Shown piece after piece: positions 1,163 through 29,220 of a stretch of 44,588 bases of DNA. The stretch lies in IMG/VR virus record IMGVR_UViG_3300042355_000725, positions 1 to 44,588 of that record; one strand, 5' to 3'. The notes under the pieces were generated by a model. It ran no database searches and was not told where the DNA came from. It saw nothing but the letters and a program-made list of their open reading frames with translations. A program made the position numbers and the translations under genes. Source of the stretch: a virus (Duplodnaviria > Caudoviricetes). Position 1 is the first letter of the stretch. Every line of letters begins with the position of its first letter.

Positions 1163-1531
1163 TTATCGAGTAACTTCCCGAGACAAAACCAACGCACCCT
1201 CCTGGATGCGATCCACCATGCCACTTGGCTTGGTCCATTCAATGTCGTAAACGTACTGGCTGGCTGGATCAACTTCCGTCTCTCCTGCTTGCATTGCGCT
1301 GGAGACGGCCCGCGCCAGCGAATACTGCACCGTATTCGTTGTGGTGTTCACTGAAAACGTGAACGAGGCTGCAACTACGGTGGTGCTTTTGGTCTTTCGG
1401 ATTTGCCCGCTGAACGAGGATCCCGTCAGAGCCACCACTGCGCCAGTCGCGTCCTTGATCTGAAACTCTGCGGCCCAGTCCGAACCCTGCTTGACGTAGA
1501 TTGCCACCTTTGACGCCTTGGAGCCGATCAT
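1163..1531 (-). CDS. Putative virion protein, BppU-N-like beta fold
   Basis: Pattern IYVKQGSDW...GQIRK...YVYDIEW...RIQEG...EVTR, commonly seen just upstream of fibre genes. Confidence 0.6.
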   Translation of the reverse strand: MIGSKASKVAIYVKQGSDWAAEFQIKDATGAVVALTGSSFSGQIRKTKSTTVVAASFTFSVNTTTNTVQYSLARAVSSAMQAGETEVDPASQYVYDIEWTKPSGMVDRIQEGALVLSREVTR

Positions 1532-1818
1532 GGGACTTTGCGTTCCTCCATGGATCGTGACATCTGGTCCACGTCGTCGCGGATCCCCTGCATCTGCTCG
1601 CTGATTACCTCGATGGACTTAGCAGTGCTTTCCAAACTCTCGCTTGTCGCGGTCATAAAAGCACTGATGCCGTGCAAGTGATCGACAAACGCATCCTTGA
1701 GAGGCGTAATGACGTTGACCGCCAGCCAACCAGCCGTCTTCCAGAGCCCGATACCGCCCGCAACGACGATCGCAACAGCCAGCCCATTATTTGCAATCCA
1801 TTGAGTTAGTTCCGTCAT
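1528..1818 (-). CDS. Holin-like membrane protein, 96 aa
   Basis: MTELTQWIANNGLAVAIVVAGGIGLW...: N-terminal TM helix then coiled coil; ATGA overlaps at both ends. Confidence 0.55.
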   Translation of the reverse strand: MTELTQWIANNGLAVAIVVAGGIGLWKTAGWLAVNVITPLKDAFVDHLHGISAFMTATSESLESTAKSIEVISEQMQGIRDDVDQMSRSMEERKVP

Positions 1819-2297
1819 TTTCCGCCAGCACTCCGATAGGATTCGAGGTTTAACTTGCCAGCCACCCTGAACCACTTTTCGCCGTCCCAAACGTCCCAAT
1901 AGGGCGTCGGCTCCGACGTTGTGCTTGTTTCGCGTCTCACTGCCCATCCGGCCAACCGCCACGGCTCGGCCTGCTCTCGCCACCATGTTTCGCATGGTCC
2001 GCATCCGTCCAGCGAGTACATGATGACGGTCGGCTTCATGGGCAATTTTGCTGCTTCAATCTTTTCCTTCTTTTGTTTCGCTAGGTCACGCTCGACTTCG
2101 AGTTTTTCGATACGAGACCCAAGACGAAACCATTGACGTTCTTGATCGCTGAATCGCTTTATCCAAGCGTCCACTTGCTCTAATCGCTCGGACACGGCTC
2201 GATAGACTCGGTAGCCCTGGTAAGTCACAAACGCGCCTGCGATGAGAACAGCAACCAGTACGAGTGTTTGGATCGCTGATAGGAACTTGGCAATCAT
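1815..2297 (-). CDS. Membrane-anchored thioredoxin/glutaredoxin-like protein
   Basis: N-terminal TM helix, coiled coil, then VIMYSLDGCGPC (CxxC) and a downstream TPYW (cis-Pro loop). Confidence 0.7.
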   Translation of the reverse strand: MIAKFLSAIQTLVLVAVLIAGAFVTYQGYRVYRAVSERLEQVDAWIKRFSDQERQWFRLGSRIEKLEVERDLAKQKKEKIEAAKLPMKPTVIMYSLDGCGPCETWWREQAEPWRLAGWAVRRETSTTSEPTPYWDVWDGEKWFRVAGKLNLESYRSAGGK

Positions 2298-3130
2298 GCC
2301 GATGCCTCCGCAACGGGAGGGTTATCCCCTTGGGAATCGTCGCTCGTTGATCGCACCAGATAAAACGCATGGTGCCGCGACGTGGATCGAAGATGCCGCG
2401 ACCAAGAGATCCAACCGCGCCCCTGTTGCCCGTACCGAAGACCCCAGGAGTTGAACATATCAAACTCAAACTCAGTGCCGGTCCATCGCAAGTCGTCTAC
2501 GCCTACAGCGTGATTACCCGGCCCATCGGTCGGATAGACCCGGCCCTCGGCATCGAGGGTGGTAAATGCGTTGGTCGCATGGACCGCCACCACGCCTACA
2601 AACCCGGCTGCAAGTCCGCTTTCCAGTTCGTCCGAGGTGTCAACTCGATAGCACTCGATAGCCTTGAACCGCGCCATCGCTTCGCGGGCTTCCTGAGAAA
2701 TGTTTTTCCATAGGTATTCTTGATGAGGCACCATCGACTCAGGAGGCACACCGCGTTCGGTAATCGCTTTCATGCCGTCATCGAGCATCGAGCCAACATC
2801 CCGCCCGCCGTTGATTTGTGCGTATAGCCCTTCACCTGAGAGCGGTATATGCCGAAGACCGCGTTTCACTCGCGCTCGCTCTAGCGCCTTGGCTCCCGCG
2901 TAGCCGTTGCAGCTTCCCCGCTGCCCCTGGCTCTTGATCCATTGGGAGGCCGGAAACCACAATCTTGCAGCCATCCGTCGAGGATCCTTGAGGATCTCGA
3001 TCTTCTGCTCCTTCGTGAACATCGGCATTCCCGAGTCCGCATAGGCTGTGAACGACTCTGGGCGATGGTCTGGAACCAGCGTCCCTAACGGAAACTCCAA
3101 CCCATCGATCTCGATATATGGCAGACTCAT
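2294..3130 (-). CDS. Papain-family (C1A) cysteine peptidase
   Basis: Catalytic motifs QGQRGSCNG, GNHAV and FNSWG..YG..G. Confidence 0.88.
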   Translation of the reverse strand: MSLPYIEIDGLEFPLGTLVPDHRPESFTAYADSGMPMFTKEQKIEILKDPRRMAARLWFPASQWIKSQGQRGSCNGYAGAKALERARVKRGLRHIPLSGEGLYAQINGGRDVGSMLDDGMKAITERGVPPESMVPHQEYLWKNISQEAREAMARFKAIECYRVDTSDELESGLAAGFVGVVAVHATNAFTTLDAEGRVYPTDGPGNHAVGVDDLRWTGTEFEFDMFNSWGLRYGQQGRGWISWSRHLRSTSRHHAFYLVRSTSDDSQGDNPPVAEASA

Positions 3131-16738: not shown

Positions 16739-18276
16739 ATCAACTCCACGTCTGCACTGAGTGTTGTTTGCAGGATTACCGCGCGATCGCCGTCATGTAA
16801 CGCCAATACGAAGTCGCCAACGTCCAGCCATGGGAACAAACCTAGTTTGTCTTCGACCAGTACCGGCCTCGCGTTTATCGCTTGGCTGTATACGCCAGAA
16901 GCATTGACATAGTTAGCCGCTTTCCAGCGTCCGCTATGAGGAGCCGAATAGGCTCCGATATAGAGTCCAGCCGTGCTTGTCTTGTCGGTGATCTGCACCA
17001 GCATCGCTCCCCATTGCGGGCTGGAGGCAGAAGGGATCCGAGGCCACATGGGCAAGGATTCGTCGCGAAGATCAACAAAGGTTCGCCCTTGCTTGTAAGT
17101 TACGGCTGCTGCCTCGGAGCCCAAGGGTATCGAAAAGTAGCCAGCCATCTCAATACGCTCGGTCCTGCGTGATGCGCGAAAGTAGCCCTTGATGGTTCGC
17201 TCGACGGCCCGAACGCATCGCTCGTAGGTGGCTGCTTGCGTGTCCAGCATGGATTGAGCGGCTGCGAGTCCCAGTCCTGCGAGTGTGCGTATCACGATCG
17301 GAGGCATCACCAACGAGGAAAAGTGCATCATTCCGCCAGAGCCCGATTGCGTCGGCTGGTAAAACGTCGGCTGCGTCAGCCCAAGATTGCCGATGCTGTT
17401 TTGAGGAAACTGAACGAACGGAGAAATGTAATCGGGACGCATTCGGAATCCATATCGATCCAAATACGGAACCGTCCACGTCCATTCCAAGTCTTCATAC
17501 CTTTTGATGATGTACCGCTTTGCCGGAGTGCCGACATTGAGGGCTGCTTGCAAGTTGACTTGCGGTTCGCCTGCTAATTCCATTCTCCATCGGCCAGGGT
17601 ACGAGTCCAAGTCGGCCCATATCACCGTCCCTGTCATTGCCGCAAGGGTGCGGAGGCGGTTCGGAATGTGCGAGTTGCGAGTGTACTGATGGAAACCTAT
17701 TGATGCTGCCTGTCGCACCGAGGCGGGAACGTCGGCATGTAGCCGAAATTCGCCGACTTGAAATGGATCACCACCCGACGCCAAGGTCGGGTCGATCGTC
17801 TCGGCGACGTGATACTCCGCCAGCAAGTTTTCGTCTTGCTCCTGGTTTGTGATGCCTTGGTTTTCGTAGATCGATTCGGCGTCTGTAACGGACGACCATG
17901 TGGATGGCGGGTTGTTTATGTCGGCAAAGTTGAGCGTGCCGACAATAAACTCGATTTTTACGATTTGCAAATCCTGGATACCAAGAAACTCAACTCTGCG
18001 TGGCACCAAAGGGTAGAGACGAATTTCGGTGTCCGGCCCGCCATCGTTCGCGCGCGATGTGTCCCGAACAATGCACTCTAACGAGCCGCTAAAGTCACGC
18101 TTTAGCAGTTTCTTCGCATCATCCTTCTTCATGCAGACATGCACTTCGTGAAACGCATGTCGCTTGAGCAGGACTTGGTTGTGGGCTGATTTACCAACCG
18201 CCGAAAAGACAGGGTATTCTTTTTTGGCTCCCGTAGATTCGCGAATGATGATGCGTTGCTGTGCTGGGTCAGGCAT
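16735..18276 (-). CDS. Putative tail/baseplate protein
   Basis: 513 aa, coupled to both neighbours; function inferred from position only. Confidence 0.5.
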   Translation of the reverse strand: MPDPAQQRIIIRESTGAKKEYPVFSAVGKSAHNQVLLKRHAFHEVHVCMKKDDAKKLLKRDFSGSLECIVRDTSRANDGGPDTEIRLYPLVPRRVEFLGIQDLQIVKIEFIVGTLNFADINNPPSTWSSVTDAESIYENQGITNQEQDENLLAEYHVAETIDPTLASGGDPFQVGEFRLHADVPASVRQAASIGFHQYTRNSHIPNRLRTLAAMTGTVIWADLDSYPGRWRMELAGEPQVNLQAALNVGTPAKRYIIKRYEDLEWTWTVPYLDRYGFRMRPDYISPFVQFPQNSIGNLGLTQPTFYQPTQSGSGGMMHFSSLVMPPIVIRTLAGLGLAAAQSMLDTQAATYERCVRAVERTIKGYFRASRRTERIEMAGYFSIPLGSEAAAVTYKQGRTFVDLRDESLPMWPRIPSASSPQWGAMLVQITDKTSTAGLYIGAYSAPHSGRWKAANYVNASGVYSQAINARPVLVEDKLGLFPWLDVGDFVLALHDGDRAVILQTTLSADVELI

Positions 18277-19909
18277 GCACCACCCCGCGTTGGCCGAAGG
18301 TTGGGTTGGGGGTCACTTGCTTTAAGACCTCGTTGATTCGCCACTCAGGCTGAAACGGTGGCTTGCCTGTTCGGAGCCACTCCTTGGCTTCGCGAACTCC
18401 CGCGCGGGCTGCTGCCTCCACGGTCATGGGATTGACTCCGCAACGACAGTTGTAGTCCCATGGGGGGGTGAAGTAGTCCCATACGGGATCGTCTCGGCGG
18501 TAGACGTTGGTGCCATCGAGCCCGAGGGACTCCATCTCTAGGTGATCGTGGCGCACTCGCGTGTCTCGGATCGCGTCGTAGGCTTGGTAGGGAAACGCGG
18601 CTGCGACGATCGGGTTTGATGCCAAGGTCTCCCTCCCATCGCGGAATGCTGCCTGGAGGTTGGTTCGGTAGACGTTCTCCAAGTGGGCCCGTCCGATGGG
18701 GGAGCCATCGAGAGCCTCACTGACGGCCTTCTCGAATCCCTTGCGGCTCGTCCCCTCGTCCACGTCGTAGACCAGGACGTTTCGGATGCGGTCGATGGTG
18801 TCGGTCGAAATCGGAGCCGTGATGAAGAACGCTCGCTCCTGCGCGTATTTGTCCACCGCCTCCCATTGCTGGCGGGTCATAATGTTTCGCTCGGCAAGTC
18901 GCTTGGCTGCTATCTCAATGAGCGGGAACCGCAATGCGTCGTCTGACTCGTCGAAGAACGTGAAACGCGGGAATGGTGGTTTCGGTGGCTTTTGGGGCGG
19001 TGTTTGCCGGATGGTGGTTTCGAACTCCTTCGCCAGCCATGGCGGGAAGTTGCGGTAGAGGTAATCCATCCCCGCCGTCCACGAGTATAGGAACGAGTCG
19101 CGGATATGGCGGTATACAAAGGTGCGGAATCGCCCGAGTGGTGTTGGTAGCCACGCCAGGATTTGCGGGATCGGAAGGGATCGCTTCTTCCAGAGCGAGT
19201 CCATGATCCGCGTTCGGACGGTCTGTGCGGCTCCCTCGGAGGCGATCAGGCTGCGTCCGATGATGCGGTCGAGGATGCTGCCCTTGGTTTGGCGGGGTGC
19301 GGTGGACAGTAAGATGTTGCTAGTAGACGGATCGAACGTGCCTCGGTTGCCGGTGGCGGATTTGATCTGGTTCGGCTCGAACGCCGCGTACACGGTTGCC
19401 CTTGCAGTGTTACCGTCTTTTGCGTTTACGAAAATTACCCCGTCGTGCCCTTCGTCTTTTGCGTCCCACAATTCCGCGTGATCGGGAGCGTCATCGCTGT
19501 AAGACATATCGATTACTTTTGGGTTCTTCATGCTGACATACAATGGAAAAACCCGGCCTTTCCCGCTGGCTTGTCGTTCAGCATGCAGGTTTGCCATATC
19601 TGGACTGCTTGTTGTCCATATTGCCCCTGGAGCTTTTTTTGAAGTTGCGCCAGATGGCTTAAATTCGTCGAAATCGAGTTGGCTTCCAGTCCCGTGATAT
19701 ACCACCAGCGGCTTCCCGTTCTCATCAACCACCCTCGAATCACCAAACCACGCCTTGAACTGCGGAGTCTCGGTGACGTGAGGCTTGGCGGGTTTCGAGG
19801 CTGTGCGACGAGCCGCGACCGATTGCGCGGACTCGACCAACTCCCAACGATGATTCTCATTGAGGCGGTAGGTCTTGCCGTTTTGGGTCTTTGTCTGGCC
19901 GGGTTGCAT
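18269..19909 (-). CDS. MuF/SPP1 gp7 head morphogenesis protein with N-terminal ART-PolyVal ADP-ribosyltransferase domain
   Basis: N-terminal FKAWFGDSRVVDENGKPLVVYHGT...AFEPNQIKSATGNRGTFD; C-terminal LENVYRTN...DTRVRHDH...PPWDYNCRC; SD AGAGGA before ATG 19909. Confidence 0.88.
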   Translation of the reverse strand: MQPGQTKTQNGKTYRLNENHRWELVESAQSVAARRTASKPAKPHVTETPQFKAWFGDSRVVDENGKPLVVYHGTGSQLDFDEFKPSGATSKKAPGAIWTTSSPDMANLHAERQASGKGRVFPLYVSMKNPKVIDMSYSDDAPDHAELWDAKDEGHDGVIFVNAKDGNTARATVYAAFEPNQIKSATGNRGTFDPSTSNILLSTAPRQTKGSILDRIIGRSLIASEGAAQTVRTRIMDSLWKKRSLPIPQILAWLPTPLGRFRTFVYRHIRDSFLYSWTAGMDYLYRNFPPWLAKEFETTIRQTPPQKPPKPPFPRFTFFDESDDALRFPLIEIAAKRLAERNIMTRQQWEAVDKYAQERAFFITAPISTDTIDRIRNVLVYDVDEGTSRKGFEKAVSEALDGSPIGRAHLENVYRTNLQAAFRDGRETLASNPIVAAAFPYQAYDAIRDTRVRHDHLEMESLGLDGTNVYRRDDPVWDYFTPPWDYNCRCGVNPMTVEAAARAGVREAKEWLRTGKPPFQPEWRINEVLKQVTPNPTFGQRGVVHA

Positions 19910-20150
19910 TGGTATTCCTCTTTGCTGCATGCGCCGCGTCTCGTATCGCTTGCTTGGCCTCTAATTCCTTGAGGACGGCTTGTTCTCTGGGATTCAGGAC
20001 TTCACCAAATCGAATTGCCTCATGCAATTCATCGAGGTTGATCGAATCGATTAGGTGTTGCTGATCGTCGGAAAGTCCTTCCTGTGTCGTCAACGGGAAT
20101 TGCAATGGGTCTATGGTTGAGTTTGCTGGGTTGGGTATGGGGGTATCCAT
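19857..20150 (-). CDS. Small acidic protein, candidate antitoxin/immunity protein
   Basis: SD GAGG; starts inside the last codons of the zeta-like domain and overlaps the MuF start. Confidence 0.55.
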   Translation of the reverse strand: MDTPIPNPANSTIDPLQFPLTTQEGLSDDQQHLIDSINLDELHEAIRFGEVLNPREQAVLKELEAKQAIRDAAHAAKRNTNATRPDKDPKRQDLPPQ

Positions 20151-23100
20151 TTCTTTGCCTCTTCAATGTACTCAGGGCTAGTCAACCCCTTGGCGATTGC
20201 CTCGGGTATGTCGCCAGCAAGATACCTGTGAGCTACGTTCCTATGCAACCTGTCTTCCAGTCCGTTTGCCGCGTTTTGATCCTCTTCAGCAACTCGCTGC
20301 TCCAGATATTTAATGGCCTCATTTCGGTCGGTGATTAGGCGCTTTTCCCCGCGATTATCGCTGCGATTGTCCACAACGTGAACCTCGACATCATGTCGCC
20401 TCTTCAAAAGTTCTAATGTTGCCTTTCTGGCCTTGATGTTGGCTTCAAAAGCAATGTTGGCGGGTACGGTACGCGGTAATTCTCCCCGCTTGTGCAAACC
20501 CATGGCTCGCTTGGCGATGCCGGTAAGTGCGGATTCGGGTCCGCGATCGATGAACACATGCAGAGGTTTGTATCCATTCGCGATCGCATCATCTAGTTTT
20601 TGTTCCAGTTTTGGATAGCTATCGGATGCTTGATCCAGAACGATCGGGTATTCCTGTTGATTGTAGTAAAGCCCGGTTGCTGTTCCCTTCCCTGAGCCAC
20701 CGCCACCAGCAAGAATCAGCATTCGATTATTGCCCTTGCCTTTCATGCCGGACAACGCCTCCGAATACAACCGTTTGTTCAAATAGCTACTCGCTTCGTG
20801 AACATCGGCAGCGTTCGTACCGACGTACTGCGGGAAGTTGGTGCGCCATTCGTCGGTGTTTAGCACTACTCCTTGTAGATTTCCTTGGGCATCATACATG
20901 CCGTTGGATTGCAAATACTTGGCCTTGTGTTGTTCGTAGTTTTCCGCCGCGTCTCGTTGCGTAATCTGGTCAATCGTCTCTAGTTGCGACTCCATCGAAG
21001 GCGTCTGCGATTGAGGCTGGCTCGGCGAAGACTGGGGATGCGGTGATACCGTCGAAGACGTAGGTTTCGGCGGTTGCGGTTGCGAAGGCTTTGGGGTTGC
21101 CGAGGAAGTCTGTGCATCGCCGGGTTGTCGTGCCGAAGCGTGCGCAGATTGCGTAGCATGACCTACAGGTAGCTTTTGCCCTGTCCCTGGGTCAAACGTC
21201 GGCATCGGTCGTCCAGGCTGCGCCATCGGATGCTGTTGCGTTTGCGCCGGTGCTTGTTGAACATGCTGGGGATGGGGTGACGGCTGTGGACGATCGGATC
21301 GTTGCCATCGGTGATGCTGGTTGAGCGTGTATTGCCGACCATTGAACGTGCGAACGGTTCCAGGTGCAAGATTCATCAATGCAGGATCCTCTTGTTCGAG
21401 TTCTGCAAGTCGCCTGCGCAATCGTTCCGCCTCTTCGAGCTTTGCAGTCGATTGAACGATCTTTGGCGCATTGTCCTCGGATTCGGGCTGGTTTCCGGTC
21501 AGTGCCGCTTCGACTTCTCGGAGTCGCTGTTGCTTTTTCTCCAACTCTTCTTGCTTGGCGAACTTTTGCCCGATCTTGGCTTGCAAGGATGCTTTGTTGG
21601 CTTCCTGGGCAGAAATAGCCTGAATCTGATCGTCGGCTCGCTTCTGCATGTTGGCCGAGTATTCGATCGACTTCAAAGACGGTTGCGAACTAGAATGGAT
21701 TTTGTCGCCGCTCGGAAGATCGAGAAAGAGACGCCGCGTCTCATGGTCTATCGGTGACAATTTCCATTTTTCCGTCCATGGCTCCTTACCATAGGAACGC
21801 GATCGCCAGCTAGGAAAGTATTCTGCTGGCTTGTAGTGCAACGGAACGCCTCGATATTCTCCGATGTGGATTGGCTCGATGTTTCCGCGATCCCATTCGT
21901 CCGAGTTCGCTGCTTCGTGATCGATTTCCGTCATTCGCGACGCAAGGGCTTCCTCGGCGGCTTTTCGTTCGTTGTAGGTGGTTTCACCTATCTTCATCTC
22001 GAAGTCTGGACGGCTGGCAAAATGAGCCAAGTCGGCTTTATGCCGTTCCAGTTGCGATTGCATTTCTGGTAGCGACTTGTCCGCTTGAGAAAGCAATTCT
22101 CGTGTCTTGGTTTGCTCGCGTATGTGACGTTGCTGGCCCTGTCGCAGACGCTTGATTGCGTCCTCTAGCTCCACTTTTTCCATCGTCAGAGGATTACCCG
22201 ATGCGATCGCCATCAACTGGTCGGGGGTAACGGTTTCCGTGTCTGCGTCCGCGACTTCTCTTGCATCGCTCTTGCCAGCCATGACTTGGTTGATGAATTT
22301 GGCCTTGGTAGATACGGTTTGCCAGAAGAAAGAATCCAACGAACCTTCTTGAATGTACGGGATGTTCAACAATGGCTTGCCCAGCTTGGCCAGTTCGTTG
22401 CCGTGCCGGAAACCGCGTCCGACACGTTGCTCTAGCGCTGATGGGGTCCAGGGAACGTCCAAATGGTGCATGGCCATGACCTTGTTCTGGACATTGCATC
22501 CCGTGCCCAGTTTCTTCGTCGATCCAATCGCGACAAGGATTTCTCCGCGTCGCATCTTGTCCATGGCGTCTTCTTTGGCTTGACCCTTGAGCGCCGAAAA
22601 ATCGGCAATCTTCTCTCGGGGAATCCCACCCGCTACCAGCTTGTCGATGATGTCGTCGTACAATCGGAAGGATCCTGTGCTTCCGAGGTTTGCGTCGGCA
22701 AACTCTTCATTGAACGTGATGTCTTCATCTTCTTCCTGGCGTTCTTCGCTTTCTGCATCGTCACTGACGACCGCCTCGGCTGCTCGCGATGTGGTGGTAG
22801 ACGGATTGACACCCACATCCGAAAAGATCAGTTGCGTGAACCCTGGGTTTTCCCTTGAGAGCCGTAGGACGTTGCGAACGCATTGATTTGTTTTGCTGTT
22901 AGGTAGATCCGGCGCGTTGTCGTCTAGCAGACGCAAATCGACGGCTCCCTTGCGGCCATCGGTACAAATGACCAGCATGTTGTCTTCGCCCTTTTCGGCC
23001 TGACCACGTTTTCCGCTGAGTGCCTTGGCTCGCTCTTGCAGATTGCCCATGAGGGCTTCGATTGCAGGATGCTTTGGAGAGACGGTTTCTTGATCGACCT

Positions 23101-26100
23101 TCTTTGGCCTTAGAATTACCGGGGATCCAGCCGGACGCGACGGATCGTTTATTTCCGCCGCTTGCGCAGGTGTTAGCTTGAGATCGTCCGCCCGTTGCAC
23201 GTCGATCACTTGTCGAGCCATCGCCATCAGCTCGGGAACATTGACAAACTTCGAGAATCGATCCGTAGGCTTGTATTCGCCAGCCACGTTAAAGTTATGC
23301 CGCGTTTCGATCGATCCGAAGACGCTTGCCCAATCATCGAAATTGGAGATTCCACGTTCTGCAAGTGCGTTCGGCTGCAAATACCGCTGCATCGTGTACA
23401 GTTCGGCCATGGTGTTATCCAAAGGCGTTCCTGTGGCAAACACAACACCACGGCCACCGTTGTGTTCTTGCAAGTATCTGCAACGCATCAGCATCGTGGT
23501 TGCTCGCTGGCTTCGGCCTTGCGGGATACCCTTGACTCGGTTTTGCTTGCTGTAGGTCGGTAGAGTCTTGTAGTAGTGGGCTTCGTCCACAAACAGTTGA
23601 TCGATTCCTGTGTCCTCGAACGCTACCGCATCATCCTTGCCCGCAGCCGTCAAGATGCGTTCCAGTTTTACTTTGAGGTTTTTGATTGCGGTTTCGATTT
23701 GCTTGGCGCGATTGCGGCCATCTTTTCCGCCCTCACCCTCTGCGGCATTTTTTGCCGATTCCATTTCCGCGATTTCATCTCGCATGTACTGCGCTTCCAC
23801 CTCGGGGCGCATTTTGAGCATGTTCAAATTGTCATGCGTCATAATGACCAGATCGTAGTCGCCCGTCGCCATGCGTGAGACAAGCTCCTTGCGCTTCTTG
23901 GCTGTCATGTTCCCCTGGGTACTGAGGATTCGAGCGCCAGGATAGAGCAGTTGAGCATCTCGGGTAATTTGCTCGATATTGGCCTTGAGACACGCGATGC
24001 ACGGCTTTTTAGCCAAGCCTAGACGCCTCAATTCCATGGCGCTTGCGATCATGGCATAGGTTTTGCCCATTCCCACTTCGTGGGCAGCTAAAGCCGTACC
24101 GTTGGTAACGACTTGCCAGACGAAATTGGGAATGTGCGGATGCAACTTGATCGCCGGGTTCATTCCTGGGAATGTTTGGTGCGATCCGTCGATTTGCAAA
24201 TCGCGAATGTTGTTGAAGTTGTCGTTGAAGTATCGCGCAAGACGAATCGCGCGATCGTCGTCTGACCAAACCCAATCCCCGAACTTGTCCTTCAACTCTT
24301 GGACTTTGGCCGCAACATCGTTGGTCGCCTTGCGATTGACGACTTCATTTCCGTCAGCATCGACGGCCCGTATTTGATGCGTTCCGGTTTCGTCTGTGTA
24401 TTCGTCGATCCCTCCCTTTACTTCGATTTTTCGGCCTGTCAGTGCCGCTTCAAGTAACTTGATGAACCCGACTCCATGCGTGTCCCATTGTTGCGTTTGA
24501 TATATTCGGCCACTACTGTACCGCCTTTGCCCCTCGGAAGACCATTTGGCTTTCCAGCCTCCGAGCCCTCCTGCAAGAGTAGAGTGCGAAATCTGGAAGT
24601 AGCGAGATTCCGTATTGAGAGTGTCGGCTGCAAATTGAGCAACATCCGAAGGTGGAAGCCATGCAGCGCCGAGGTTGACAGAGATTTCGCTGATGTCCTT
24701 ATCCTCGGGTTGTACCTTGGAAAGAGCATCGACGTTTACCTGGAACTTTGGATCGGCTTCGGCTGCGGCCTTGGCTGCAATCAACTTTTGTCGAACATTA
24801 CCCGACAAGTAGACCGCTGCCTGTTGCCATCCCGCGCTGGGATCCTCGAAAGCAATGCCTGATTGCGACAGTTCTCGCCCCGCTTGCTCAATCGTCTTCC
24901 CTGTGATCTTTGCAATGTGCTCGATGTTAACTCCACCGAACTCATGGAACGATACTCCGATGGCATCCGACACGTTGTCTACTTTGTCCAAGCTCGGAGT
25001 GTGCCGTACTGTATCCTTGAAAAAGATGTCTGCCTTCTTTGCTTGTTTGGTTCCAGCGTTGTAGTTCTCAAGAGATCGCAAAAAGAACTGGTCGTCTCCC
25101 GAATCTTGCATCGCGCGAGTATTAGCACGATCGTTAATAGGTCCAAATTGGGCGACGAACTTGTCGTATGCTTGGTTCAACGCTTCGCGATCCTTTGAGG
25201 CATCTTCTCCCTTGAGCTGCGTATTGATTGCGGCTCGACCGGCTGCAAGAATCGCGAGTTGCCCTTCGATGCGGGCTAGCTGCGTCTTGTTGGCCTCTCG
25301 CTGTACCAGTCCGCCTCCCACTCGCTGAAATAGCTTGCCATCGATAATCCGATAGCCACCTTCGCGAACATCATCAGGCGCTGGCATCGACTCAGGAATG
25401 AATGCCTGCTTCGAGTTTTGGACTGGGTGATACACACCTTCGGGTAGGTTGTCGATAAACTTTGCCAGCTTAGTGCGTAGCTGGTCGCGACCGACCCGAC
25501 GCCGATCCTCTGCGGACACTGGGGTTCCGTCTTCGAATACTAACCGGCGTTTTTTCGATACTGGATCGACATCGACTCTGACGGGTCGCCCTAAAGCCTC
25601 AGACAACTCTTCCGGCGATGCCGCAGACACTCCCTTTTCTTCCGCCGATCGCATGGTCGCGCTGCGATCCAATCGACCAAGAATGTTTTCTGGGTGTTCG
25701 GCAAAATACTTGTTGATCGTGATTGGTTCACCGCCGTCAGGATCGGGGACTTGTGTCGTTTGGGTCCAATCCGGCCCTGGGACACGTTTGCCATCTTTCC
25801 AGTGATAGAGTCGGCCAAGCGAATCAACCGTGATTCCGGTGAAACCTGGTTGTTTTGGATCGGCTTCGCTAGGCGTGTTTTCAAGTGTGACAGGTTGTTC
25901 CCCAGGTATTCTCTTGCGCAGGATCACCATGTCGGTGACTACCGAAGTACCCGCGTTCTCTTGGTGCATTCCAGTCGGAAACCGAACGGCTGCAACAAAC
26001 TCGCACTTGTCAGCAAGCAATTTACGAATCTTGTCGTCCGGTTTGTCCATTGTGCCGGTGCTGGTGATGTGCATGATGAGCCCGCCCGGCTGTGCAACAT

Positions 26101-28954
26101 CCGCCGACTTCAAGAAAAAGTAATCGTGTATGTACGCTTGATGCCTGTCATAGCGAGGATCGGCAACTTGATATGCGCCGAACGGCACGTTGGATCCAAC
26201 CAAACCAAAAAAGTTGTCTGGCGATTGAAACTTTTCGAACCCTTTGATTTGCACGTTCGTTGACGGGTACAGTTGCTTGAGCATTGCTCCCGTCGTTTTC
26301 TCCAGTTCGACCGCTGTTGTGTGCGTTCGGCCCGCTAGGTCGCTTGGCATCATGCCGAGGTAGTATCCGATCCCGGCAGAAGTTTCGAGGAATCGTCCTC
26401 CGTTGAACCCTAGCTTTCGAGCGATGTCCCAGTGCGCCTGAACCACATCCGGGTGCGTGTAGTGGGCATTGAGAATCGAACCCTTGGTTGTTTCAAACTC
26501 TTCGTCCGTCAAGATAGAACGCAATAGCTTGCGTTCTTTGTCCCAGTCCTGCTTCTTGAAGTCAGGATCGTATTTGAGTTGTTCTTCATCACGCTCCTGC
26601 GACTCGTCGTCGTAAGCTCGCGGATTGTTGAACAAGGCAGGAAATTGGCCCCATCCAACGAACTTGGAAAGAGTCTCAGCTTCCTCCGGGGTAGGTTGAC
26701 GCCCCTCTTCCTGCAACATTCGCATCGTTTGCAGGGCTGCAATGTTTTGACGAAACTTCGTCTTGAGTCCGCCTTTAAGAAACTCGTTCGTTGTGTAGCG
26801 GAAATTCCCAGCCGCAAGATCGGTAGGGGTTTCTGGGGTCGGAGGCGAAGTGACGATCGCCTCGACGTTAGAGGCTACTCCTCGGGAATCGCGAAGAGTT
26901 GATCGTTGACCAGTTCCCGAATCACTTCCTTCGGAGTCCCCTGATCGATTAGCGTCTGCTCCAGTCTTTGAGCGGAGTCTACCATCATCGTCAGATAACC
27001 CGGAGTCTGATCCCCCAGTTCCTCCAGTAATTCCGGCCTGTTCGCTTCCAGGTGATCCAGAAGGGCTTCTTCCAGATATGGACTTCGGCTCTCGGGGTCC
27101 ACTGTCTTTGCTCTCTCGTTCCAGTCCATCTTTGGCCTCCGCATCCAGTTTACCACGATTCAAATGATGATGTAGGAGTTTCGCCGCAAAATCCGACGCT
27201 TCTTCAATCGATCCAAACTTTTCCTCGTAATCGGTTCGTTCCTTGGTCGGGGAATAATGCCGTATTGTATGCTCGTATTTACCGCCTGCTTTGCGAGCGA
27301 TGTTGATCTGCACTTTGTGTCCATTTTTCAGAACCAACTTGTGCGCCCGCCGCAATGTGTCTGCCCATCGATTGTGATTGGTGTTCCGCTCCTGCAAATC
27401 CGGGGCTTTCTGCTTGGAATCGGCGGTTCCAGTTTTTTTGCCGCTTTCAATCTCTTGGCGTTGCTGCTCCGAGGCTTTTGCAAGAACTTCGCCCGGAATG
27501 AACATTCCGCCGTAATACTCATGTCCGTCGATAACGAGTGGGTTTTCCTTCGTATAGCCTTTCGGGGCATGTTTTGCCGACATGAATTGCGGTTGCTGTA
27601 AAGCGACCTTTGCCGCTTTTACTAGCTCCGCAGCCGACAACACTCCCTCTCCAACGGCTGCGGCTACGTCTAGGCCCATCATCGTTGGATCTTGTCCCAT
27701 GCTGGGATCGCTGCCATCGTTCATGCCTCCCATGGGATCTGCGTTGGGATCCATGCCCATTCCGCCGTCCATGCCTCCCATGCCGGGATCCATGCCCATC
27801 GCTTGCGGTTGACGCTGAGCTTCGAGCGCCTGCTTGGCTAGTGGCTTGTGCTTCACGTCGAACGGGATCATGCGTCCGAAGATATTGATGATGCCGGGCT
27901 CTAGTAGCTGCTCTCGCATGTCGTTGATGATCGTCCGCACCCACGGGTCGAGGTTCGCGTAGAGGATCCCCATGGGAATCAATCGGCCTTGCCAAGAGCC
28001 TGCGTCGTCGGCCTTGAGAACGCCATCGGGAACGAACATCCCGCGTAGCATCTCCCCATCGAGATCCCCAGGGTACTGGAGGATGTGCGACGGGTTCGCC
28101 GGGACGGTGGCGCGTGTGAGGTTCCACATCGGGTTGCCTTTGTCGTCGTACTGGGCTGGAGTGGTCGTTACCCCTCCGGCTTCAATCTGCTCGACGATTT
28201 CGCGGGCCAGTTCCCGGTTGGCGACTTCGTGCGGGTTGTCTACGGTCCCGATGTCGGTCGATCCCTCGGGGTAGCGCAGGTCGGCCCCACCATACGCGTC
28301 TTTGTGCATGAACAATCGCCGAACATCCACAGCACCGCCATCGAGGTGCTTGTCGGCCCAAGCGCGATACGAGCCTTGCAATACGGTTGTGCCGTAGTGT
28401 TCGCCAGGAAAAGCGTTGTAGGAATGGAACAGACACTCGGGATGCCGCAAATCCAAGTAGCCTTCGGGGGCTCCCTTCACTCGTCCAAACCGAATGCCAC
28501 AGGATCGCCCGGTGTCGGGATCGAGCAGCATTCGAACATCGTTTGCGTGTCGCTGTTCGATGGTGGAGATTTCCCACGTCCCAAACTCGTCAGAACGCTC
28601 CCAGATGACTTCGCACCCGGCCCAGCCATAGATTTGAGCGGACGCGAGATGCTCGATGGCACAGTCCCATAGCTTGCGAATCTGACGCATCACCCAAGCG
28701 CCGACGGCCTCGTCCTGGCACATCACGCCCACTTGCCATTGGCCGTTGACCTCGTAGCCAAACTCGACGCCTTGGACGATCGCCCGCCGGGCTGCTAGTC
28801 CGATCTGAATCGTCTCGTCCAGAAGCATTTGCTCGATGATCTGAAACGTGAGCGGTGGTAGCTTTTGGTGCCGTCGCAGCCACCATGTTTGGATCGGCGC
28901 GTAGCCTTTGGTCTTCGCGGTCGGTCGTTTCAGTGCGTCGTTGATCTGGTTCAT
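20111..28954 (-). CDS. Giant polyprotein (2,947 aa): Mu gp29/DUF935-like portal + DarB-like N6-adenine methyltransferase + SNF2 helicase + zeta-toxin-like P-loop domain
   Basis: Portal motifs (DETIQIGLAARR, AQIYGWAGCEVIW, HYGTTVLQGSYRAWADK); MTase FLETSAGIG and NVPF; helicase AHEVGMGKT, FVDEAH, ATGTP, QRVGRGFR; C-terminal LILAGGGGSGKGT...RGELPRTVP. SD GGAGG before ATG 28954; no other portal candidate in the genome. Confidence 0.87.
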   Translation of the reverse strand: MNQINDALKRPTAKTKGYAPIQTWWLRRHQKLPPLTFQIIEQMLLDETIQIGLAARRAIVQGVEFGYEVNGQWQVGVMCQDEAVGAWVMRQIRKLWDCAIEHLASAQIYGWAGCEVIWERSDEFGTWEISTIEQRHANDVRMLLDPDTGRSCGIRFGRVKGAPEGYLDLRHPECLFHSYNAFPGEHYGTTVLQGSYRAWADKHLDGGAVDVRRLFMHKDAYGGADLRYPEGSTDIGTVDNPHEVANRELAREIVEQIEAGGVTTTPAQYDDKGNPMWNLTRATVPANPSHILQYPGDLDGEMLRGMFVPDGVLKADDAGSWQGRLIPMGILYANLDPWVRTIINDMREQLLEPGIINIFGRMIPFDVKHKPLAKQALEAQRQPQAMGMDPGMGGMDGGMGMDPNADPMGGMNDGSDPSMGQDPTMMGLDVAAAVGEGVLSAAELVKAAKVALQQPQFMSAKHAPKGYTKENPLVIDGHEYYGGMFIPGEVLAKASEQQRQEIESGKKTGTADSKQKAPDLQERNTNHNRWADTLRRAHKLVLKNGHKVQINIARKAGGKYEHTIRHYSPTKERTDYEEKFGSIEEASDFAAKLLHHHLNRGKLDAEAKDGLERESKDSGPREPKSISGRSPSGSPGSEQAGITGGTGGSDSGLSDDDGRLRSKTGADANRSGDSEGSDSGTGQRSTLRDSRGVASNVEAIVTSPPTPETPTDLAAGNFRYTTNEFLKGGLKTKFRQNIAALQTMRMLQEEGRQPTPEEAETLSKFVGWGQFPALFNNPRAYDDESQERDEEQLKYDPDFKKQDWDKERKLLRSILTDEEFETTKGSILNAHYTHPDVVQAHWDIARKLGFNGGRFLETSAGIGYYLGMMPSDLAGRTHTTAVELEKTTGAMLKQLYPSTNVQIKGFEKFQSPDNFFGLVGSNVPFGAYQVADPRYDRHQAYIHDYFFLKSADVAQPGGLIMHITSTGTMDKPDDKIRKLLADKCEFVAAVRFPTGMHQENAGTSVVTDMVILRKRIPGEQPVTLENTPSEADPKQPGFTGITVDSLGRLYHWKDGKRVPGPDWTQTTQVPDPDGGEPITINKYFAEHPENILGRLDRSATMRSAEEKGVSAASPEELSEALGRPVRVDVDPVSKKRRLVFEDGTPVSAEDRRRVGRDQLRTKLAKFIDNLPEGVYHPVQNSKQAFIPESMPAPDDVREGGYRIIDGKLFQRVGGGLVQREANKTQLARIEGQLAILAAGRAAINTQLKGEDASKDREALNQAYDKFVAQFGPINDRANTRAMQDSGDDQFFLRSLENYNAGTKQAKKADIFFKDTVRHTPSLDKVDNVSDAIGVSFHEFGGVNIEHIAKITGKTIEQAGRELSQSGIAFEDPSAGWQQAAVYLSGNVRQKLIAAKAAAEADPKFQVNVDALSKVQPEDKDISEISVNLGAAWLPPSDVAQFAADTLNTESRYFQISHSTLAGGLGGWKAKWSSEGQRRYSSGRIYQTQQWDTHGVGFIKLLEAALTGRKIEVKGGIDEYTDETGTHQIRAVDADGNEVVNRKATNDVAAKVQELKDKFGDWVWSDDDRAIRLARYFNDNFNNIRDLQIDGSHQTFPGMNPAIKLHPHIPNFVWQVVTNGTALAAHEVGMGKTYAMIASAMELRRLGLAKKPCIACLKANIEQITRDAQLLYPGARILSTQGNMTAKKRKELVSRMATGDYDLVIMTHDNLNMLKMRPEVEAQYMRDEIAEMESAKNAAEGEGGKDGRNRAKQIETAIKNLKVKLERILTAAGKDDAVAFEDTGIDQLFVDEAHYYKTLPTYSKQNRVKGIPQGRSQRATTMLMRCRYLQEHNGGRGVVFATGTPLDNTMAELYTMQRYLQPNALAERGISNFDDWASVFGSIETRHNFNVAGEYKPTDRFSKFVNVPELMAMARQVIDVQRADDLKLTPAQAAEINDPSRPAGSPVILRPKKVDQETVSPKHPAIEALMGNLQERAKALSGKRGQAEKGEDNMLVICTDGRKGAVDLRLLDDNAPDLPNSKTNQCVRNVLRLSRENPGFTQLIFSDVGVNPSTTTSRAAEAVVSDDAESEERQEEDEDITFNEEFADANLGSTGSFRLYDDIIDKLVAGGIPREKIADFSALKGQAKEDAMDKMRRGEILVAIGSTKKLGTGCNVQNKVMAMHHLDVPWTPSALEQRVGRGFRHGNELAKLGKPLLNIPYIQEGSLDSFFWQTVSTKAKFINQVMAGKSDAREVADADTETVTPDQLMAIASGNPLTMEKVELEDAIKRLRQGQQRHIREQTKTRELLSQADKSLPEMQSQLERHKADLAHFASRPDFEMKIGETTYNERKAAEEALASRMTEIDHEAANSDEWDRGNIEPIHIGEYRGVPLHYKPAEYFPSWRSRSYGKEPWTEKWKLSPIDHETRRLFLDLPSGDKIHSSSQPSLKSIEYSANMQKRADDQIQAISAQEANKASLQAKIGQKFAKQEELEKKQQRLREVEAALTGNQPESEDNAPKIVQSTAKLEEAERLRRRLAELEQEDPALMNLAPGTVRTFNGRQYTLNQHHRWQRSDRPQPSPHPQHVQQAPAQTQQHPMAQPGRPMPTFDPGTGQKLPVGHATQSAHASARQPGDAQTSSATPKPSQPQPPKPTSSTVSPHPQSSPSQPQSQTPSMESQLETIDQITQRDAAENYEQHKAKYLQSNGMYDAQGNLQGVVLNTDEWRTNFPQYVGTNAADVHEASSYLNKRLYSEALSGMKGKGNNRMLILAGGGGSGKGTATGLYYNQQEYPIVLDQASDSYPKLEQKLDDAIANGYKPLHVFIDRGPESALTGIAKRAMGLHKRGELPRTVPANIAFEANIKARKATLELLKRRHDVEVHVVDNRSDNRGEKRLITDRNEAIKYLEQRVAEEDQNAANGLEDRLHRNVAHRYLAGDIPEAIAKGLTSPEYIEEAKKWIPPYPTQQTQP
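26875..27129 (-). CDS. Nested out-of-frame gene (84 aa, acidic helical, weak TnpV-like pattern)
   Basis: GGAGG-6 nt-ATG at 27129; MDWNERAK...HLEANRPELLEEL...YLTMMVDSAQRLEQTL...IRELVNDQLF; the host frame here is a G/S/D-rich linker. Confidence 0.65.
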   Translation of the reverse strand: MDWNERAKTVDPESRSPYLEEALLDHLEANRPELLEELGDQTPGYLTMMVDSAQRLEQTLIDQGTPKEVIRELVNDQLFAIPEE

Positions 28955-29220
28955 ATTTTTCCTCCGCAAGCCTTGTCAACGTAAAGTTGCACGGCCTTGG
29001 ATTTCGCTTGTTGTGCTAGTTCTTCGTCACCGTAGGCTCGGAGCCAAAGTTCGTACACTTGTTGGTAGTTGGTCGCGTCGTAGTTCCCCTCGTCAATCTT
29101 CCGCTTTGCCTGGAGCGCTGGAAGCATCTCCTGCAGCGCCACGATCTGCTCGGCGTGCAGATCGAACGGGTTTAGCCCGTACTCCCATCCGACTCGGATC
29201 CTTCGTTCGTATTTTTTTTT
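28951..29220 (-). CDS. -1 frameshift extension of the tail assembly chaperone (gpGT-like; fusion ~182 aa)
   Basis: The -1 frame is open from the A9 run (29212-29220): KYERRIRVGWEYGLNPFDLHAEQIVALQEML... to the stop at 28951. Confidence 0.7.
   Translation of the reverse strand, partial: KKKYERRIRVGWEYGLNPFDLHAEQIVALQEMLPALQAKRKIDEGNYDATNYQQVYELWLRAYGDEELAQQAKSKAVQLYVDKACGGKI

Follow-up and report, generated by a model that had tools for sequence, protein, structure and literature searches.

The virus record IMGVR_UViG_3300042355_000725 (Duplodnaviria; Caudoviricetes), a stretch of 44,588 nucleotides (nt) that we analysed at full length and refer to as the window, carries on its minus strand a gene for a giant polyvalent protein of 2,952 amino acids (aa), and within this host gene, on the same strand and in the +1 frame, lies a second open reading frame (ORF) of 84 aa. 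Our analysis indicates that this small nested ORF is almost certainly a real gene, and that genes of its family accompany DarB-like methylase-helicases well beyond this phage. The features that the argument needs are the following, with positions in the window and with E the expectation value of a match.

20111..28969, minus strand: host gene, 2,952 aa, a polyvalent protein made of portal, linker, DarB-like methylase/SNF2 helicase and zeta kinase
28346..28843, minus strand: Mu-type portal match, host aa 43-208 (Pfam PF06074, E 3.2e-8)
27134..27367, minus strand: small domain preceding the linker, host aa about 535-612, belonging to no family
27136..27140, minus strand: Shine-Dalgarno (SD) motif GGAGG, 6 nt ahead of the nested ATG
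26875..27129, minus strand: nested 84-aa gene, +1 frame, a DUF1896/TnpV-like helical protein (from the ORF list, homologues and a structure model)
26873..27130, minus strand: host-frame G/S/D/R linker, aa 614-699, overlapping the nested gene; open and poorly conserved in sequence
25895..26845, minus strand: methylase region of the DarB-like module, host aa about 709-1025 (PHROG 1685 at aa 732-1020, PHROG 37568 at aa 730-1025)
21368..25483, minus strand: DarB-like middle and SNF2 helicase region, host aa 1163-2534 (PHROG 10089; PF00176, PF00271)
20357..20656, minus strand: zeta-toxin-like kinase match, host aa 2772-2871 (PF06414, E 1.7e-7)
19857..20150, minus strand: 97-aa ORF overlapping the end of the zeta domain

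The nested ORF runs from an ATG at 27129 to a TAG at 26877-26875, over host residues 614-699, and its start, SD motif and stop all lie within the other open frame. An earlier reading of this DNA from its letters alone, which we call the original prediction, had described such an ORF with a GGAGG motif and an acidic product, placed where the polyprotein frame stays open as low-complexity G/S/D/R sequence and ending shortly before the methylase, and all of this holds: the product has a net charge of -13, the host stretch contains 18 G, 18 S, 10 D and 9 R among 86 residues, the host frame of the window copy shows 0 stops where 4.8 are expected, and the nested stop falls 29 nt short of the conserved motif at the start of the methylase region. 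The prediction had also put the ORF directly after a basic domain of about 75 aa. The position is right, since the nested start directly follows the HNRWAD...LNRGK segment, but "basic" overstates a mild net charge of +4 over 78 aa, with 7 histidines besides. The predicted structure of the nested protein is helical (predicted local distance difference test score, pLDDT, 91). When the host gene is recoded synonymously 2,000 times, an ATG with a strong SD appears at the spot of the nested ORF in 3% of recodings and anywhere in the gene in 11%; the real gene has exactly one +1 ORF of at least 80 aa with ATG and strong SD, namely the nested one.

The evidence that carries the gene is its conservation in distant loci. 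We considered 80 viral loci chosen solely by their DarB-like methylase (the best 80 of 239), together with a family profile trained on 57 candidate ORFs from those loci, the clade of the window phage being absent from the training. A nested homologue at E<1e-3 is present in 79 of the 80, every one in the +1 frame and -15 to 630 nt ahead of the methylase match. In all 79 the host frame runs through the overlap without a stop and a start codon stands at the expected place; an SD-like motif precedes it in 72. The same profile finds the close clade of the window phage at E 1e-5 to 1e-11. The original prediction had proposed as a check the ratio of nonsynonymous to synonymous change in both frames, which we ran as pN/pS: over 45 distant-set pairs of less than 15% divergence it is 0.16 for the nested frame, 1.88 for the host frame and 0.07 for a methylase control, values that are uncorrected and come from non-independent pairs. 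The nested frame is thus under purifying selection in the distant set. Moreover, host-frame stops in the overlap number 0 among 73 distinct distant loci, with 3.3 expected per locus. Taken together, the contrast of 0.16 with 1.88 and the lack of host stops imply that the nested frame bears the protein constraint while the host frame is merely kept open.

Such genes also lie in well-known records. Those of phages POI1126, VvAW1 and Bcep22 contain nested ORFs of this kind that are unlisted (Bcep22 at E 0.002), and two plasmid records do annotate the small ORF, which has weak similarity to the family, and place the start of the helicase gene further in despite an open upstream frame. Two further records are oddities of annotation. 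In Sinorhizobium phage PBC5 (gp22; L139, 1958-8500; L and P numbers are our handles for loci) a frame change, which may be either a sequencing error or real, runs the first part of the DarB-like gene into the nested frame, so that the nested protein leaks into the "endolysin" family PHROG 938 and the methylase start is left unannotated. A Campylobacter jejuni plasmid with a cpp14-like gene (L043, 2516-2992) has an unlisted 158-aa +1 ORF with AGGAG, which ends 8 nt ahead of the methylase match and shows weak family similarity (E 1.6).

Closer to the window phage, protein searches returned one 84-aa homologue at 69% identity and seven further short homologues at E<1e-3; two long repeat proteins among the matches were set aside. 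A set of 30 loci fetched with a profile of the methylase start consists of the window phage itself, 11 loci (10 distinct) with an intact close +1 homologue directly before the methylase, five acidobacterial-type loci with a more distant homologue, five with a weakly similar +1 ORF (AGGAGG in four of four checked), one frameshifted locus (L016), four where linker and nested ORF are both absent before the methylase (L006, L007, L009 and L013), two incomplete loci and one spurious match. By the original prediction, stops in close homologues, together with the failure to detect a peptide, would have spoken against the gene: the 10 distinct loci are intact, and in L016 a frameshift, likely an assembly error, breaks both frames. 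Identity to the window copy among 10 relatives is 23-40% in the nested frame and 18-26% in the host frame, the nested being higher in all 10, in an alignment that was itself built in the nested frame. Two side observations belong to these loci. In the acidobacterial-type methylase-helicase genes (L025, L026, L029, L030, L031) a short leader with QLSLF, presumably a beta-clamp-binding motif, stands just ahead of the nested gene, about 128-135 codons before the methylase match. Giant genes of L004 (947-1126) and L005 (470-652) hold additional short +1 ORFs of 59 and 60 aa with SD-like motifs upstream of the main nested gene, and these may be further nested partners or chance.

To which family does the small protein belong? 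The window protein has no Pfam match, neither to PF14198 (TnpV), at E<=10, nor to PF08989 (DUF1896), and we can say that it resembles DUF1896/TnpV while lying below both family cut-offs. The links run through its relatives. For TnpV, the close relative L010 scores 18.7 bits against PF14198, whose cut-off is 27; 38 of 82 nested-family members match PF14198 at E<=0.1, the best at 2.2e-5; the nested-family profile finds ten of ten viral TnpV loci at E 0.002-1.8; and hhalign gives probabilities of 0.6% and 11%, with a TnpV alignment of 2 rows only. The original prediction had named TnpV as a lead for profile comparison, which was apt, the similarity being remote. For DUF1896, PF08989 matches at E<=1 in 3 of 21 relatives (best 0.0042), and hhalign against the stand-alone DUF1896 protein of a B. 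fragilis plasmid gives a probability of 60% at E 8.6e-5. True TnpV genes are themselves nested in +1 within long ORFs in L037, L038 and 3 of the 10 viral TnpV loci.

A number of observations weigh against a real gene tied to this enzyme. The +1 frame is open across the nested codons in 53% of the 2,000 recodings. The distant-set profile reaches the window phage's own protein at E 0.49, as its sole match in the window, so that the link passes through close relatives. Within the clade of the window phage pN/pS has reached saturation and tells nothing (0.92 for the nested, 1.16 for the host and 0.88 for the third frame), and the sole variant within the nested ORF across four runs, 26894 A>T in one contig, is silent in the host frame and, by codon reading, F79Y in the nested one. 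To the four loci above that lack both linker and nested ORF must be added 6 of 15 annotated methylase-helicase regions where no nested candidate was seen; four of these records were searched whole, and three are without any homologue while the fourth has a distant TnpV-like gene 31 kb off. Since three of four have none, the small partner gene is not universal. Finally, 7 of the 10 viral TnpV loci are non-nested, and the fold thus also works apart from the methylase-helicase.

Could the +1 frame simply be an untranslated by-product or relic of the low-complexity linker? The ease with which it stays open in recodings and the four related loci with no nested ORF at the linker site are what one would expect in that case. 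However, such a by-product would not be expected to retain frame, start and position in 79 of 80 loci, an SD-like motif in 72 of 79, a pN/pS of 0.16 and a confidently predicted fold, and we find this explanation very hard to credit. The nested ORF alone is weak evidence; its status as a gene rests on conservation rather than on the open frame.

What does the small gene travel with? Its family accompanies the methylase-helicase in three layouts: stand-alone upstream, nested, and stand-alone downstream. In the upstream layout, of which we have one plasmid example, the stand-alone DUF1896 gene of the B. fragilis plasmid overlaps the start of the helicase gene by 11 nt; at the window locus, too, the DUF1896-like gene adjoins the methylase-helicase. 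In the downstream layout, a 124-aa stand-alone homologue (E 4e-10) in the L009 record (L141, G406 contig, about 24954-25325) is joined to the stop of the giant gene by TGATG, and L009, which shares the small domain, has no nested copy. Phages carry the family, and so do plasmid or ICE-like elements (ICE, integrative and conjugative element), with which phages share the enzyme but not the delivery machine.

These layouts bear on the order in which the two frames arose. The original prediction took the small gene to be overprinted on the polyprotein, and the direction is likely the reverse, the small gene being the one that has stand-alone homologues and bears selection; no stand-alone counterpart was found for the linker, which is poorly conserved. 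The guanine-plus-cytosine (GC) content of the overlap by codon position is 0.68/0.33/0.62 in the nested reading and 0.62/0.68/0.33 in the host reading, as compared with 0.61/0.42/0.58 gene-wide, and so fits the nested frame. Because stand-alone homologues, selection and codon-position GC all favour the nested frame, we consider it probable that the small gene is the older and that the host linker is the later, overprinted frame.

The distribution also decides on the proposal, made in the original prediction, that the nested gene encodes immunity to the small basic domain directly upstream. The two are adjacent in the window genome, and the zeta kinase with its small ORF offers a precedent for a domain followed by its partner. 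But the small domain, which matches no toxin or other family and has a net charge of just +4, occurs in L006, L007, L009 and P0010, none of which has a nested gene or linker before the methylase, and it was not found in any further fetched locus with the nested gene (flanks of 3 kb). As gene and domain occur apart, this proposal fails, and we give it next to no credence.

The zeta kinase itself provides a parallel that the original prediction had drawn and that recurs elsewhere. In a Gemmataceae metagenome-assembled genome (MAG; L027), a zeta domain 52% identical to that of the window sits within a giant gene and is immediately followed by a nested +1 ORF of 66 aa with GGAGG (1460-1660, plus strand). 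This ORF is 32% identical to the window's 97-aa ORF (E 3e-8; score 99, with no more than 54 reached by shuffled sequences). The giant gene of L027, our one example of the kind, therefore contains two nested ORFs, each of which adjoins an enzyme module. On the strength of these sequences the 97-aa ORF is likely the zeta domain's cognate small partner, and the small ORF behind zeta, which has no family match, is a candidate new zeta antitoxin; the L027 example thereby supports the notion that nested ORFs may be cognate partners.

How might such an arrangement arise, and what would the small protein do? On balance we favour the view that it acts as a partner of the methylase-helicase in some form. 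More specifically, we propose that it binds the DarB-like methylase/SNF2 module and restrains the enzyme in the producing cell, and we put the probability of this reading at roughly 45%. Ancestrally, the small gene and the enzyme gene would have stood side by side in an operon. Modules such as the portal of this phage would then have been joined to the N-terminal side of the enzyme by read-through of the small gene in its -1 frame, leaving a low-complexity spacer. The nested gene would be translated off the same message from its own ribosome-binding site, and its small helical product would hold the enzyme in check until the enzyme, having entered the virion along with the portal, reaches the next cell and is freed from restraint. 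We take the enzyme rather than the delivery machine to be the target because the family occurs in both phages and conjugative elements.

Two other roles have to be weighed. The small protein could be a folding or loading chaperone that, without inhibiting anything, keeps the giant protein soluble or hands it over to the capsid in phages and to the conjugation machine in plasmids and ICEs. The linkage to the methylase-helicase gene would fit equally, the protein is small, acidic and predicted to be helical, and the host is a portal fusion of the kind of polyvalent phage protein for which passages of PMC5512222 propose packaging. Yet one and the same family would then need to work with two unrelated delivery machines, and several elements have the enzyme without a detectable homologue; we regard a chaperone as unlikely. 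Alternatively, the protein could have an independent role, for example in excision or as an acidic DNA mimic against host restriction, and be placed here for co-expression with the giant gene. A passage of PMC3158075 postulates a role in excision for TnpV of Tn4451 from its homology with lambda Xis. The prevalence of non-nested TnpV loci and the net charge of the nested protein would also suit a role of this sort. Against it, cores across the family are just mildly acidic (median -5, range from -11 to +4) and homologues adjoin the enzyme gene in three layouts. The structure model, too, is all-helical, whereas Xis has a winged-helix fold. An independent role thus seems to us rather improbable, and restraint of the methylase-helicase remains the reading we prefer.

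The window includes terminase, head, integrase and RecE/T-like genes, its sequence occurs in lake-water metagenomes, and its host is likely a planctomycete, since the closest relative in a named genome is the Gemmataceae MAG. The methylase region matches annotated DNA methylase and DarB-like genes by tblastn. Several conflict domains on one polypeptide, in a phage with portal and terminase, make the host gene that of a polyvalent protein. Its N-terminus is the sole portal match among 30 scanned window ORFs, and the next gene (18269-19930) encodes an ART-PolyVal and MuF fusion. Past the portal the host frame has an M/G/D/P-rich repeat (GMDPGMGGMD; about 27650-27810), where contigs of other organisms pile up, and a weak papain-family peptidase match lies at 2294-3130 on the minus strand (PF00112, E 2e-4).

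More generally, we tentatively suggest that giant polyvalent proteins may grow by reading through the small partner gene that comes with each absorbed module. Low-complexity linkers would then often be what a hidden antitoxin-like gene looks like in the wrong frame. Two such genes, one serving the DarB-like methylase-helicase (a DUF1896/TnpV superfamily) and the other the zeta kinase, would be nested in one Gemmataceae gene. If this is true, each enzyme cargo would have its own out-of-frame inhibitor, left behind when the cargo is injected. DarB-like methylase-helicases are common in phages, plasmids and ICEs, and a small gene that stays with them, whether before, within or after the enzyme gene, is a direct candidate for their regulator, accessible in isolated phages with an unlisted ORF such as Bcep22, POI1126 and VvAW1. 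Our literature searches turned up no paper on TnpV-like nesting. What is new here is the DUF1896 link, the three layouts and the putative nested zeta partner; the families DUF1896 and TnpV would both be tied to one enzyme, and the locus would be a case in which the nested gene is the older member of an overlapping pair. As a rule for annotation, wherever a giant phage gene has a G/R/D/S-rich linker, the +1 frame of that linker should be read.

Our locus can be compared with several known systems. Polyvalent phage proteins, with packaging proposed and with portal fusions and zeta-like kinases, are described in passages of Iyer et al. 2017 (PMC5512222), and the host gene is like them in uniting portal, methylase, SNF2 and zeta domains. 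It differs in its nested partner genes, not met in those passages: in the main text TnpV, DUF1896, overlap and low complexity have 0 occurrences. With TnpV (PF14198) of Tn4451-type elements the likeness is that family members match PF14198 and that some true TnpV genes are nested in +1; the difference is that TnpV has about 117 aa and often stands alone, and that the window protein has no PF14198 match. DUF1896 proteins (PF08989), of which we take PG0816 (PDB 2APL) to be a member, have about 145 aa and stand alone, in contrast to the nested protein with its 84 aa and lack of a Pfam match. Finally, the lysis lipoprotein Rz1, embedded in Rz, and the intragenic Rpn antitoxins, which are in-frame C-terminal fragments, share with our case a partner protein encoded wholly inside the gene of the protein that it serves, whereas here the putative partner is out of frame and has stand-alone homologues, and the part of the host that it overlaps is a spacer.

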